From Mustelus asterias (lineage: Eukaryota): 64,000 nt of DNA. The position numbers were made by a program, and so were the translations under genes. The stretch spans positions 111,414,001 to 111,478,000 of the forward strand of contig NC_135804.1 of the NCBI RefSeq assembly GCF_964213995.1, written 5' to 3'. Of the stretch, positions 77 through 6,300 are shown piece by piece (position 1 is the first letter of the stretch; each line of letters starts with the position of its first letter). Under the pieces are notes generated by a model. It saw nothing but the letters and a program-made list of their open reading frames with translations, did not search any database and was not told the DNA's origin.

Positions 77-875
77 CTAAGCACAAATTAGAAAATTAGT
101 CTGACTTATAACTTTCCAGCTCTAACTTCCAGGAGACTCCGTCACCTCATTGTATGATTTACAGGTCTAACATTAATTATTAAATACTGCATTTTACTTC
201 CATCATGTTGAGGATCTATTTTAGGTTATGGCAACATACAATACTTGTCAATCTTCATGCCAAATGTATATTAACCTGATCAAATGTTTTCTTCCATTTT
301 CAAAAGAATCCTTCCAAATTAAACTTGGCCATTATTTTCTACAGGCAATATTTTTGGCATGTAGATTTTGCAGGGCCATTGTTAAGGCAGCAAAAACAAC
401 GGAAACGAAAGTCAAACTACATCGACCATATCCAAATTCTTCCTAATATTCCAATCAAACTACCACTTAATACAGAGAGAAAGAACAAAGTTTCAAATCC
501 GCAGGAATTCCAAAAATGTTTTATATCTTTGACGTGCAGTTAATTCTGTAGCAAAACAGCAGCCAATTTGTACATGACAAGGTTCCACAAATGATCAGAA
601 GATCAAGCAGTTAATTTGTTTTTAGGAAACCAGGCAAACTCTTTGCTCTTTTGAAATAAAACCATCCTATTTTTAACATTCACCTGGATCTATTTCTAAA
701 ACTGTGCCACGGAGAATACTTCCACATTTCAATGAAATGTCAATCCAAGTTCGACAGCAGGGATTTAACTTCAACTGCATCACTCATTAGTAACTGAGCC
801 AAGCTGATATTTATAGACAACTTGCTTTGAAGAGAGCTTCCCTACTTCAAACACTGCTTCAGAAGCTCTAACAAA

Positions 876-1972
876 GAGCCTGATTTTACCAAACCCTCGC
901 ACCCGTTTTCGGGCGTGAAATCGCAGTAAAGTTGGGCGTCGGGCCTATACCACGATCTGCACCCGATTCCGAGCCCGAATCGGGCGGCCCGACGATTTAA
1001 ATGCATTTCCATGCATTTAAATCAACTTAATGAACCGCGCACCCAACTCTACCGCCAAATCCCACTTTACCGACTTCTGGCCTGATCCGGATCTGCGCTT
1101 TTAACGACCTGGTAAATAAAAGTCTGAAGTCGTCGCTGCAGCTTCCGAAGAGCGGGCTCAAAGCCTGCAATGGCTCGCTGACCCAGGTCATCCTCTGGTT
1201 GGGGTGGGGGGGGGGGGGGGAGAACAGACAGACGGACGAAGGGGCGGGGGGGGGGGGGGGGGGGGACCCAGATCATCCTCTGATCAGGTGGGGGTTCCGC
1301 TGCCAGTCTGCAGCCGATTGGTGGGGAGGGAGGGGGCAGCCATCTCTCCCACTCTCTTGCCCCTGCAGGGAAGAGTAATCTGTGGCTGGTAGTGTACCTG
1401 TGATGGTGTATCCCTTTACAGGCCCAGCTTGGTCCTTCGCCAGTGTCTCCTCTTGGACTTGTACTGATCTTGTTGCCGGTTTTCATGCGGATCCACTGTG
1501 GAATCGGCCGTTTCTGCTTCATCTTCTTAGCGAGGAATCGCTTCATGCTGAAGGTTTTGTGGGATGGCATGGCCGCACGTCCACTCTGGCAGGAGGGATT
1601 CGTTCCTCCGGTGGGGAGGGGGTGATCGCCCACAGAGTGGCGGCGGACCCCCCTGCCCCCTCCCTCCCCACCAATCAGCCGCAGACTGGCAGCGGAATCA
1701 CCCCTGACCAGAGGATGATCTGGGTCCCCCCCACCCCCCACCCCCCCAACCCCGACCAGAGGATGATCTGGGTCCCGCCCCCCCCCACCCCTTCCTGCCC
1801 CCGACCGACCAGAGGATGACCGTCAGAGAGACGCTCTCTCCGCTTTCTGCTTTTTTTTTCTTTCGCGCCCAGACGCGCTCTGTCAGATTTTTTTCGAACT
1901 GCGCATGCGCAGGCGTGGATCTATTTGACGCCCGGATTCGGCACTTAGACTCAAAATGGTAAAATCAGGCCC
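876..1972. mobile_element. Non-autonomous TIR DNA transposon (PIF/Harbinger-like) carrying an RPL39 retrocopy
   Basis: 16-bp TIRs GAGCCTGATTTTACCA / TGGTAAAATCAGGCCC (15/16 match), 3-bp AAA on both flanks, CpG-rich body, internal inverted repeats. Confidence 0.75.
1416..1570 (-). pseudogene. RPL39: Processed RPL39 pseudogene ([35 protein letters not shown] / [15 protein letters not shown])
   Basis: Intronless full CDS of 155 nt with a 1-nt frameshift deletion; clear eL39 peptide. Confidence 0.95.
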
Positions 1973-2157
1973 AAAGTATACATCAACAAGGCCTCATTAA
2001 GTGAGAACACAAACAGAGGGTAGTATTGGGTGATACAGAACCATCAACCACAGGAGAGCTTATGCATCTCACAGAAACACACAGCTAATTGGGAATTCAG
2101 GTATAGTAAACTGCATTTCTGATTCGACAATAAGCTGGTAACCTCAAAAGTGTGTGA

Positions 2158-2518
2158 TTTTGATTTGATTTATTGTCACATGTATTAGCATACAGTGAAA
2201 AGTATTGTTTCTTGCGCACTATACAGACAAAGCATACCATTCATAGAGAAGGAAACCAGAGTGCAGAATGTAGTGTTATAGTCATAGCTAGGGTATAGAG
2301 AAAGATCAGCCCAATGCAAGATAAGTCCATTCAAAAGTCTGATGGTAGCAGGAAGGAAGTTGTTCTTGTGTCAGTTGATACGTGACCTCAGACTTTTGTA
2401 TCTTTTTCCCAAGGGAAGATGATGGAAGAGAGAATGTCCAGGGTGCGTGAGATTCTTAATTATGCTGCCTAATTTGCCAACGCAGCGGGAAGTGGACGGG
2501 AGGCTGGTTTCGGCATGT
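2158..2518 (-). mobile_element. 3' end of a Rex1/Babar-like LINE, (ATCAA)n tail
   Basis: Same sequence recurs on the plus strand at about 30430-30640 and 48003-48240 (RxKNSFFPxAxRL-type C-terminus plus tail). Confidence 0.55.
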
Positions 2519-2579
2519 GAATTTTTTCCTTTTTGTGAACTCTGGTAAAATGGTAAGAAATAAAAGCAAGGTGCATGAA

Positions 2580-3240
2580 TGCTCTTTGATAGGAGTAGGC
2601 CATTCGGCCTATCGAGCCTGCTCCACCATTAAATAAGATTATGGTTGATCTGATTGTGGTCTTAACTGTACTTTCCTGCCTGACACCCATAATCTGTGAC
2701 TCCCTTGTAGATGAAAAATACACCTAACTCAGCCTTGAATAAATCCAACGATCCAGCCTTCACTGCTCTCTAGGAAGAGAATCTCAAAAGCTAACAGCCT
2801 TCCTCATTTCCCGCTTAAATTGGAGACTATTTTTATCTCCACCCCTAGTTCTATATTCCATTATGAGGGAGAACCATGAGGGGAAACATCCTTCTAACAT
2901 CTAGCCTGTCAAGCCCCCTCACAATCTTATATATTTCAAAAATGATCACTTCTCATTTTTCTAGACTTCAATGAGTCTAGGTCCACCTGCACAACCTTCT
3001 GCATCAGACAAATCCTCATCGCATGAATGAGCCAAATGAAAATTCTGTGAACTGCTTCCACCACTACTATATCCCTCGTTAAATAGTGAGATCAAAACTG
3101 TACATTATTCTAGGTATGGCTTCACTGTCCTGTACAATGGTCACAATTCCCTACTTTTATACTCTACCCTCCTGCAATAAAGGCTAGCATTCCATTTCCT
3201 AATCACTGACCATACCTGCTAACCTTTTGTGATTCATGCT
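2580..3240 (-). mobile_element. Degenerate CR1 3' fragment
   Basis: ataggagtaggccattcggcc 3' UTR and decayed ORF2 C-terminus similar to the copy at 53076-53912. Confidence 0.7.
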
Positions 3241-3360
3241 GTGCGTGGTCTCCTTCCTTGGTTAATGGAGACTGGAAATTGTACTTTTACTAAATATACA
3301 CAGGAAGTACATTCACCTCTACTGCATGGGCATATAACGTGCTACAAAAAATTGTGTATA

Positions 3361-6300
3361 TAGAACATAGAACATTACAGCGCAGTACAGGCCCTTCGGC
3401 CCTTGATGTTGCGCCGACCAGTGAAACCAATCTAAGGCCCCTCTAATCTACACTATTCCAATATCATCCATATGTTAGTCCAATAACCATTCAAATGCTC
3501 TTAATGTTGACGAGTCCACTACTGCTGCAGGCAGGGCATTCCACGCCCTTACTACTCTCTGAGTAAAGAACCTACCTCTAACATCTGTCCTATATCTCTC
3601 ACCCCTCAATTTAAAGCTATGTCCCCTCGTGCTAGCCATCACCATCCGAGGAAAAAGGCTCTCACTATCCACCCTATCTAATCCTCTGATCATCTTGTAT
3701 GCCTCTATTAAGTCACCTCTTAACCTTCTTCTCTCTCACGAAAACAACCTCAAATTCCTCAGCCTTTCCTCATACGATCTTCCCACCATACCAGGCAACA
3801 TCCTGGTAAATCTCCTCTGCACCCTTTCCAACACTTCCACATCTTTCCTATAATGCGGTGACCAGAACTGTACGCAATACTCCAAGTGCGGCCGCACCAG
3901 AGTTCTGTACAGTTGCAGCATGACCTCCTGGCTCCGAAACTCAATCCCTCTACCAATAAAAGCTAACACACCGTACGCCTTCTTAACAACCCTATCAACC
4001 TGGGTGCCAACTTTCAGGGATCTATGCACATGGACACCCAGATCCCTCTGTTCATCCACACTACCAAGTACTCTGTATTCCTGTTACTCCTTCCAAAGTG
4101 AATCACCTCACACTTTTCCACATTAAACTCCATTTGCCACCTCTCAGCCCAGCTCTGCAGCTTATCTATGTCCCTTTGTAACCTGCCACTTCCCTCCGCA
4201 CTGTCTACAACTCCACCGACTTTAGTGTCATCCGCAAATTTACTAATCCATCCTTCTACGCCATCATCCAGGTCATTAATAAAAATGACAAACAGCAGTG
4301 GCCCCAAAACAGATCCTTGCAGTACACCACTAGTAACTGAACTCCAGGATGAATATTTTCCATCAACCACCACCCTCTGTTTTCTTACAGCGAGCCAATT
4401 CCTGATCCAAACCACTAAATCACCCTCAATTCCATGTGTCCGTATTTTCTGCAAAAGCTTACCATGGGGAACCTTATCAAACGCTTTGCTGAAATCCATA
4501 TACACCACATCAACCGCTTTACCCTCATCCACCTCTTTGGTCACCTTCTCAAAGAACTCAATAAGGTTTGTGAGGCACGACCTACCCTTCACAAAACCGT
4601 GCTGACAATCCCTAATCAAATTATTCCTTTCTCGGTGATTATAAATCCTACCTCTTATAATCCTTTCCAAAACTTTGCCCACAACAGAAGTAAGGCTCAC
4701 TGGTCTATAATTACCAGGGTTGTCCCTACTCCCCTTCTTGAAAAAGGGGACAACATTTGCTATCCTCCATTCTTCTGGCACTGTTCCTGTAGACAACGAC
4801 GACACAAAGATCAAAGCCAAAGGCTCTGCAATCTCCTCTCTAGCCTCCCAGAGAATCCTAGGATAAATCCCATCCGGCCCAGGGGACTTATCTATTTTTA
4901 CCCTTTCCAGAATTGCTAACACCTCCTCCTTATGAACCTCAATCCCGTCCAGTCCAACAGCCTGCATCTCAGTACTCCCCTCGACAACACTGTCCCTCTC
5001 CAGTGTGAATACCGACGAAAAATATTCATTTAGTGCCTCTCCTATCTCTTCAGACTCCACGTACAACTTCCCACTACTGTCCTTGACTGGCCCCTAATCT
5101 TACCCTAGTCATTCTTTTACTCCTGACATACCCATAGAAAGCTTTAGGATTTTCCTTGATCCTACCTGCCAAAGACTTCTCATGTCCCCTCCTGGCTCTT
5201 CTTAACTCTTTCTTTAGGTCCTTCCTGGCTAACTTGTAACTCTCAAGTGCCCTAACTGAGCCTTCACGTCTCATCTTAACATAAGTCTCCTTCTTCCTCT
5301 TCACAAGAGATTCAACCTCCTTAGTAAACCACGGTTCCCTCACACGTCTGCTTCCTCCCTGCCTGACAGGTACATATTTATCAAGGACGCGTAGTAGCTG
5401 TTCCTTGAACAAGTTCCACATTACAATTGTGCCCATCCCCTGCAGTTTCCTTCCCCAACCTATGCCAGCTAAATCTCGCCTAATCGCATCATAATTTCCT
5501 TTCCCCCAGCTACAACTCTTGCCCTTTGGTATATACCTATCCTTTTCCATTGCTAAGGTAAACGTAATCGAATTGTGGTCACTGTCACCAAAGTGCTCAC
5601 CTACCTCCAAATCGAACACCTGGCCTGGTTCATTATCCAGTACCAAATCCAATGTGGCCTCGCCACTTGTTGGTCTATCTACATACTGTGTCAGGAAGCC
5701 TTCCTGCACACATTGGACATAAACTGACCCCTCTAAAGTACTTGAACTATAGCTTTTCCAGTCAATATTTGTAAAGTTAAAGTCCCCCAGTACAACTACC
5801 CTGTTACTTTCGCTCCTATCCAGAATCATCTTTGCAATCTTTTCCTCTACATCTCTGGAACTTTTCAGAGGTCTATAAAAAACTCCCAACAGGGTGACCT
5901 CTCCTTTCCTGTTTCTAACCTCAGCCCAAACTACCTCAGTAGACGAGTCCTCATCAAATGTCCTTTCTGCCACCGTAATACTGTCCTTGACTAACAATGC
6001 CACACCTCCCCCTCTTTTACCACCTTCCCTGCACTTACTGAAACATCTAAACCCTGGAACCTGCAACAACCATTCCTGTCCCTGCTCTATCCATGTCTCC
6101 GAGATGGCCACAACATCGAAATCCCAGGTACCAACCCATGCTGCAAGCTCACCCACCTTATTCCGGATGCTCCTGGCGTTGAAGTATACACACTTCAAAC
6201 CACCTTCCTGTCTGCCAGTACACTCCTGCGACCCTGAAACCTCATCCATGACCTCACTACTCTCAACCTCCTGTACACCGGAGCTACAATTCAGGTACCC

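Follow-up and report, generated by a model that had tools for sequence, protein, structure and literature searches.

The window (the whole 64,000-nucleotide stretch of Mustelus asterias DNA that was analyzed) contains near its start a non-autonomous PIF/Harbinger element, at positions 876–1972, that carries an exactly spliced RPL39 cDNA on its minus strand (Table 1). An initial annotation made from the sequence alone had described 16-bp TIRs and an AAA duplication bounding an element of ~1.1 kb, which was borne out: 15 of the 16 terminal bases are paired, and AAA stands on both sides. The inverted repeats of ~80 bp that it placed at 1261–1339 and 1653–1730 are real but longer than described, spanning 1246–1339 and 1653–1745 with 91% identity over 94 nt, and the further motifs that it saw bracketing RPL39 do lie at both flanks of the insert (GACCAGAGGATGATCTGGGTC-type). 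Also correct was its statement that the insert in the window copy has no poly(A), no AATAAA, and no inner TSD. Relative to the RPL39 dimers described below, the window copy has a 49-bp deletion at ~975.

Table 1. Features of the RPL39-carrying element and its flanks (positions in the window)
Feature	Position	Strand	Evidence
Left TSD, AAA, 3 bp	873..875	+	pairs with AAA at 1973..1975
TIR, 16 bp; the same end adjoins the transposase gene in autonomous relatives	876..891	+	15/16 against the other TIR
Subterminal DNA common to Harbinger transposase elements	876..1135	+	match of at least 60 bp in 23/30 top PF13359 loci
Left inverted arm of G-rich repeats bearing GGATGATCTGGGTC-type motifs; putative foldback-arm remnant	1180..1339	+	repeat analysis
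Inverted 43-nt piece of RPL39 3′UTR (= parent C14:8590075-8590117), putative central spacer of the ancestral tail-to-tail dimer	1337..1379	+	parent alignment
Proximal RPL39 3′UTR, stopping short of the parent AATAAA (C14:8590185)	1380..1415	-	parent alignment
Spliced RPL39 CDS, 95-96% identity to parent exons, 1-bp deletion at 1464/1465	1416..1570	-	parent alignment
RPL39 5′UTR (exon 1), last 22 nt; exon 1 joined exactly to exon 2	1571..1592	-	parent alignment
Right inverted arm and transposon-backbone repeats	1593..1821	+	repeat analysis
Subterminal region of the other end; 102-bp deletion at 1913 with CTG microhomology, relative to family members	1822..1956	+	family alignment
TIR, 16 bp; 22-nt terminus with 2,655 exact genome matches	1957..1972	-	exact-match count
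Right TSD, AAA, 3 bp	1973..1975	+	pairs with AAA at 873..875

The cargo reads from an ATG at 1570–1568 to a stop codon ending at 1416. SNORA69, which we take to be hosted by an RPL39 intron, has a single match (G000:C14:8589693–8589824, 50.4 bits) 5 kb from an exon-sized PF00832 match, and this pointed to the RPL39 parent, in whose intron 2 the SNORA69 match lies. Exon 1 of the parent ends at 8582829, exon 2 spans 8584567–8584670, and exon 3 starts at 8589993; the cargo fuses the three exons exactly, with both introns (~1.7 and ~5.3 kb) gone, and its majority sequence is 97–100% identical to the parent exons. The intronless coding sequence reported by the initial annotation thus stands as to the introns, but in the window copy the 1-bp deletion, which falls at the exon 2/3 junction, shifts the frame, and the ORF is not intact. 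The pyrimidine-rich leader reported with it proved to be transposon arm rather than a TOP motif: the cargo starts ~22 nt upstream of the ATG, downstream of the parent's TOP-like tract, which is absent from it. At the other end, the cargo's RPL39 3′UTR stops at C14:8590117, 68 nt upstream of the parent AATAAA.

The same 1-bp deletion is common to 39 of 40 RPL39 arms in loci L001–L030, and the junction is intact in all 12 loci picked by Pfam score. Copies with an intact junction (L042, L031–L041), together with the intermediate L017, indicate that the base was lost later than splicing. Loss of intron 2 at the DNA level, through the GTACAA repeat present at both of its splice sites, was considered and rejected, as intron 1 was also removed exactly. 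Subfamily A (L031–L041, L244–L273; ~1.9 kb, 65 candidates) has a single antisense RPL39 and a 640-bp A/T-rich insert, for which no TIR-free donor was found (a TIR was present in all 30 loci examined of the 65 candidates); 25 of 34 RPL39 ORFs in this subfamily are intact, most with M17V, in a sample biased to best matches. We regard the cargo as probably a passenger and ascribe no role to it. No RNA data set was listed as containing 1340–1700. The genome also contains a separate, old, 5′-truncated spliced RPL39 retrocopy (L049:1390–1620, G000:C9:30873.7 kb), which is TIR-less, is 80% identical to the parent, and is missing exon 1 and the greater part of exon 2. It has an A-run and may be flanked by an 11-bp duplication, the left copy of which would be ~55 nt away from the start of the cDNA.

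Mobility was examined in the first 100 terminus matches by position on contig C1, of which 98 were analyzed (two pairs shared one region). A second TIR was found within the 1.5–3.4 kb examined in 73 of the 98, which were counted as complete elements. Perfect 3-bp TSDs flanked 49 of these 73, against a shuffled mean of 4.0 and maximum of 11, and were absent in 24; flank matches of 2 bp (7) and 4 bp (0) were at chance level. Among copies with both TIRs in view, the TSD was present in 12 of 19 in RPL39 subfamily B, 20 of 26 in subfamily A, and 8 of 12 carrying OPA1. The target flanks in the position-ordered sample have the consensus A-[AGC]-A-C-NNN-G-T-[CGT]-T, resembling the AAACACCWGGTCTTT target given for Harbinger3_DR (PMC3016246). 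Copies have unrelated flanks, keep both TIRs and the same internal junctions, and have no tails. Amplification was by DNA transposition, and the proposal of the initial annotation that the chimera transposed as a unit is confirmed by many copies with the same junctions, different flanks, and 3-bp TSDs. It is very improbable that the whole chimera instead spread via RNA, in a SINE-like or retro-DNA manner, or that it reflects segmental duplication or an assembly error: retroposons typically are abundant and contain mRNA sequence, as these elements do, and primate retro-DNAs are on record (PMC11195612), but the retention of both TIRs, the 3-bp TSDs, the palindromic target consensus, the lack of tails, and the unrelated flanks largely refute spread via RNA, and the presence of the junction and of the foldback joint in contigs of independent public runs speaks against misassembly.

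Among the top 30 of 10,689 DDE_Tnp_4 (PF13359) candidates, 23 carry at least 60 bp of the window's subterminal DNA. L212 is a 5,421-bp TIR-bounded element with an AAA TSD and a DDE_Tnp_4 ORF, and L207 is a 3,623-bp element bounded by the same TIRs with a TSD; DDE_Tnp_4 is encoded by L212, L209, and L208. In L208, one of three elements tested, a Myb_DNA-bind_5 (PF13873) ORF that is marginal by score (21.9 bits vs the cut-off of 21.7) lies beside the transposase ORF, and a search for a second ORF in segments of L205 and L212 gave no Pfam match. Because of the TIRs, the 3-bp TSD, the target consensus, and the ends shared with transposase/Myb elements, we assign the family to Harbinger, the identity that the initial annotation had offered as a candidate, and consider both this assignment and the multiplication of spliced cargo by the family nearly certain. 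The shared ends suggest that the spread was most likely driven by a Harbinger transposase acting in trans. The Harbinger expansion in this genome is very large, as the 10,689 candidates indicate, and near-identical 5.8-kb elements with open frames of 411–435 aa occur on the small contigs C96, C111, C140, and C471. Family elements are nested in or adjoin each other at L163, L199, and L204, and in L071 an insertion starting ~817 bp in from the terminus resembles, by eye, one end of an LTR retrotransposon.

Exact matches across the genome number 2,655 for the 22-nt terminus and 1,280 for the 18-nt spliced RPL39 exon 1/2 junction, with none for the reversed control of either probe; a single-copy RPL39 chimera, the case that would have spoken for ordinary retroinsertion, is thus excluded. 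On C1, 85 junction matches fall in 66 loci, which extrapolates to ~990 RPL39 loci genome-wide with a probe whose detection rate was 12 of 28 for arms and 9 of 22 for elements, and a Chapman mark-recapture estimate on the first 117 Mb of C1, which assumes independent detection and was then extrapolated, gave ~2,500 RPL39 loci (1,500–3,400). First-look candidate numbers (5,782 for the element, with 40 scored, and 3,701 for PF00832, with 150 scored) are not copy numbers. The RPL39 version has spread to ~1,000 sites at least, well beyond the figures published for comparable animal gene-carrying elements. At non-CpG sites, copies differ from their subfamily majority by 1.3–2.6% and majorities differ from the parents by 0–2.2% (n = 8–59, with a best-match bias), and because of these values we consider all bursts to be of similar, recent age.

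The hairpin appears to be a product of the capture rather than its target. Tail-to-tail RPL39 pairs with a 43-nt 3′UTR spacer were found in 10 of the 30 best-matching loci and in 3 of the 20 position-ordered loci having an exon-3 probe match. The palindrome axis in these dimers lies inside RPL39's own 3′UTR, and the window copy corresponds to a dimer minus 272 bp (the second RPL39 arm), cut at CTG microhomology at 1337–1340, with the 272-bp gap clean in two of three dimers aligned to it. By this comparison, the window copy is what remains of a tail-to-tail RPL39 foldback after the loss of one arm. Relatives lacking the RPL39 coding sequence were found, as the initial annotation had suggested looking for, but the palindromic ones keep RPL39 5′UTR at the axis: in L106, L137, L159, L161, and L204 the hairpin axis is the last 18 nt of the RPL39 5′UTR, a scar of the kind to be expected if a dimer had collapsed at a CCA repeat. 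The arm motif was found in none of 39 transposase-search loci. Because the axis lies in the RPL39 3′UTR, the 5′UTR leaves scars, and the transposase loci are arm-less, we conclude that the hairpin is younger than the capture, and the idea that the cDNA had dropped into the center of a pre-existing hairpin is not supported. A search with the distal RPL39 3′UTR returned only the parent and the old TIR-less retrocopy L049 (2 of 2 candidates). The foldback likely erased the original RPL39 3′ junction, and with that junction lost the missing poly(A) and TSD in the RPL39 cargo are uninformative on how it entered; it may have done so as repair filler, as the initial annotation inferred, or by LINE-type insertion, the original 3′ junction surviving in no copy found.

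RPL39 is not the only cargo. The 98 position-ordered termini include 22 with RPL39, 14 with OPA1 (one of them by a 32-bp flank match only), 3 with MRPL55, 3 with each of two further inserts, and 1 with the subfamily-A insert. Other members do hold other spliced mRNAs, OPA1 and MRPL55, as the initial annotation had proposed to check, although not at the same position. The OPA1 cargo, identified by a PDB match (9e-32) and by Pfam, consists of 17 fused parent exons that occupy 64 kb on C3, with 16 introns gone. From 117 scored candidates, PF19434 gave 120 matches, many of which cover the full 345 positions without interruption, and long OPA1 matches number at least 75–120. Both TIRs were present in seven of eight long copies (2.2–4.1 kb), all seven with perfect, differing TSDs, and 3 of 29 OPA1 loci had no TIR within 1.5 kb. 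The cargo ends ~12 nt past the stop codon without poly(A), and neither the sequence after this end nor the next exon was found in 160 kb of DNA lying downstream of the final coding exon of the parent; the end fits internal priming and later deletion equally. At the 5′ end of the cargo, a 4-nt repeat marks a foldback. One OPA1-carrying element (L281, G000:C3:about 37294840–37296005) sits in one of the introns of its own cargo's parent, the OPA1 gene.

The MRPL55 cargo (PF09776, 3.8e-36; 130 Pfam matches from 140 candidates) fuses three parent exons on C8, with two introns gone, and ends 12 nt past the parent ATTAAA, merging into the backbone's own A-run. Compared with the empty backbone, ~3 nt of target are lost, there is a 2-nt overlap at the 5′ side, and there is no TSD; the 5′ junction is the same in all eight copies and the 3′ junction in seven, one copy being truncated. 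All three mRNA cargos are 5′-truncated or begin within an exon. A fourth cargo, C77, is a 390-bp insert (L156:521–910; ~69 candidates, with a TSD in 17 of 20 complete copies) whose source is a unique contiguous genomic locus, L307 (G000:C4:40593582–40593961), at 96%; one of its junctions shows 11 nt that nearly match a backbone repeat. Because C77 derives from contiguous genomic DNA, capture at the DNA level also occurs in this family. Further inserts are C65 (570 bp, L153:about 2408–2977, also in L068, L088, L163, and L204), which lies at the hairpin axis and has 70-bp inverted ends of its own, and two single inserts, at L107:about 187–740 (550 bp, with an inverted duplication) and L142:about 853–1765 (910 bp). 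No Pfam family scored over the cut-off in 31 stop-free segments of C77, C65, the subfamily-A insert, L107, and L142; a PDB search with two of these five gave one spurious pilin match and one blank; and Rfam gave no match at E≤0.01 on seven loci. Six of eight 'empty' elements were inspected and had no further cargo, and the coverage threshold of the residual-insert screen is such that cargo present in at least 24 elements could escape it.

The RPL39 18-nt scar is present in 13 of 30 C77 loci, 2 of 5 MRPL55 loci, and 0 of 29 OPA1 loci. Its occurrence in the MRPL55 and C77 subfamilies would imply serial capture within one lineage; for the OPA1 elements, descent from the RPL39 lineage is suggested by k-mer clustering with L073/L113, the one basis for it.

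The exact splicing of the RPL39, OPA1, and MRPL55 cargos establishes that they originated from RNA, and reverse transcription is the likely route by which the three mRNAs entered. We think it reasonably probable that the RPL39 cDNA was made by a reverse transcriptase, probably that of a LINE, primed by short homology at a nick or break in the element, that foldback then likely doubled it, and that Harbinger transposition spread it. As read from the sequences, the order would be as follows. An RPL39 cDNA would first have joined a plain resident element, with the reverse transcriptase, probably of a LINE, primed at a nick or break inside it. Foldback synthesis within the 3′UTR would then have given a palindromic dimer and erased the original 3′ junction; the unstable palindrome would have collapsed repeatedly at 3-nt microhomologies, leaving one-armed copies as well as empty copies with the 18-nt RPL39 scar; and descendants would have gained MRPL55 mRNA, OPA1 mRNA, and at least one contiguous genomic piece, each founding a subfamily of its own.

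An ordinary target-primed LINE event that placed the cDNA, with its poly(A) and TSD, in a resident element, followed by loss of these hallmarks through foldbacks and deletions and by Harbinger amplification, would differ from this sequence of events in the entry step only, and is the route described for bat Helitrons (PMC4224331). The MRPL55 cargo does end at a poly(A) site on an A-run, and the retrocopy L049, with its A-run and possible 11-bp duplication, indicates that such machinery acts on RPL39 mRNA. However, none of the three cargos has a TSD (the RPL39 3′ junction being lost), poly(A) is missing from OPA1, and MRPL55 has seemingly unrearranged junctions, with a small deletion in place of a duplication; we therefore regard this form of entry as unlikely. 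Unlikely to much the same degree is gap filling or template switching at the DNA level, the Pack-TIR route, in which a broken element would have copied a pre-existing retrocopy or a free cDNA. Microhomology marks the breakpoints of Pack-TIRs (PMC8277862), microhomology and foldbacks occur throughout the present family, and C77 came from the unique contiguous locus L307 with an 11-nt near-match at one junction. This route lacks a suitable RPL39 donor, in that L049 is only 80% identical and is without exon 1 and most of exon 2 as compared to the 97–100% identity of the cargo, and three spliced cargos would require three donors (the donor search for OPA1 and MRPL55 was not exhaustive).

If the RPL39 cDNA was indeed laid down by reverse transcription primed at a break, a more speculative extension is that the lineage became a self-made mRNA trap, in which the fragile palindrome from the first capture kept breaking, the breaks were patched by reverse-transcribed housekeeping mRNA with short homology as the primer, and the transposase multiplied the patches. 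We put this forward tentatively, as a possibility that we would not yet favor. If true, RNA-templated repair of breaks in a vertebrate germ line would have left its fossil record in these elements, and single reverse-transcription events would have yielded processed pseudogenes by the thousand, with dozens of intact RPL39 ORFs among them.

Other organisms also contain the chimera, as contigs of four public runs (A, B, C, and E, from four studies) cover both arm and cargo. Under a 31-letter rule, and among the longest pieces listed, X1 and X7 have pieces that bridge the arm/RPL39 junction, X7 and X10 have pieces that bridge the foldback joint, and the RPL39 frame is intact in X7 and X10. Most copies in organisms C and E have the intact frame. 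Because the junction and the foldback joint occur in these contigs, capture and foldback are probably older than the split of the lineages concerned, and the frameshifted subfamily probably expanded later in one of them.

These findings add a third way in which a vertebrate gene can be duplicated en masse, namely by a single reverse-transcription event followed by DNA transposition. Retrocopy counts are an established gauge of LINE activity and germ-line expression. With ~1,000 or more RPL39 copies from one event, such counts would mislead in this lineage, as would apparent expansions of RPL39, OPA1, and MRPL55, and read mapping or qPCR for these three genes would be confounded. Because parents, empty backbones, intermediates, and autonomous partners survive here at ~2% divergence, the long-standing question of the way in which host sequence enters TIR elements, and of RNA as a possible template, can be tested junction by junction.

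We found no report of this cargo-carrying Harbinger family in the literature searched, although Repbase, Dfam, subscription papers, and supplements, which were outside the search, may hold it. As in fish PIF/Harbinger elements such as Harbinger3_DR, there are TIRs, a 3-bp TSD, a palindromic target, and a transposase with a Myb-like ORF (PMC9179366, PMC3016246). However, in place of CWG the present family has a variable, A/T-rich TSD (PMC9179366, PMC3016246), the exact TIR is 16 bp rather than the 25–50 bp usual in PIF/Harbinger (PMC9179366), and host cargo is absent from the sections of the fish descriptions that were compared (PMC9179366, PMC3016246). Plant Pack-PIF elements belong to the same superfamily and are likewise non-autonomous amplifiers of gene fragments; Gisby and Catoni (2022) described Pack-TYPE elements with 72 copies in one maize group under a model of genomic-DNA capture, and the words 'intron' and 'mRNA' do not occur in the main text, whereas the cargo here is spliced mRNA (PMC8903248).

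Animal Pack-TIRs are TIR elements with host sequence inside and junction microhomology, and some are multicopy, as here (PMC8277862). In the main text of Tan et al. (2021), which mentions neither 'harbinger' nor 'shark', four multicopy cases are given for the reference genomes, of which the one illustrated has three copies, and cargo lacking the introns of a multi-exon gene was deliberately left out (PMC8277862). The present elements, like those defined by Tan et al. (PMC8277862), have host sequence with an identifiable parent between their TIRs (RPL39, OPA1, MRPL55, and C77), but that definition asks for capture from genomic DNA, and here 2, 16, and 2 introns, respectively, have been removed from the mRNA cargos and only C77 is contiguous. 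The RPL39, OPA1, and MRPL55 elements work like Pack-TIRs and fall outside that definition, and they extend animal Pack-TIRs to cargo that is spliced, high-copy, and serial.

The closest parallel in the origin of the cargo is with the Helitrons of Myotis bats, in which Thomas et al. (2014) reported four retroposed mRNAs with 118 copies, a finding presented as unprecedented among DNA transposons (PMC4224331). There, as here, mRNA was reverse-transcribed into a DNA transposon and then amplified, capture was sequential, and the cargo includes a ribosomal-protein mRNA, RPLP0 (PMC4224331). The Myotis elements are rolling-circle transposons whose cargos have poly(A) and TSDs, whereas the present family moves by TIR cut-and-paste, has no inner TSD, and has undergone foldback remodelling (PMC4224331). 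The scale also differs: 118 copies in all in Myotis (PMC4224331), as compared to ~1,000–2,500 RPL39 loci, more than 100 MRPL55 matches, and at least 75–120 long OPA1 matches here.
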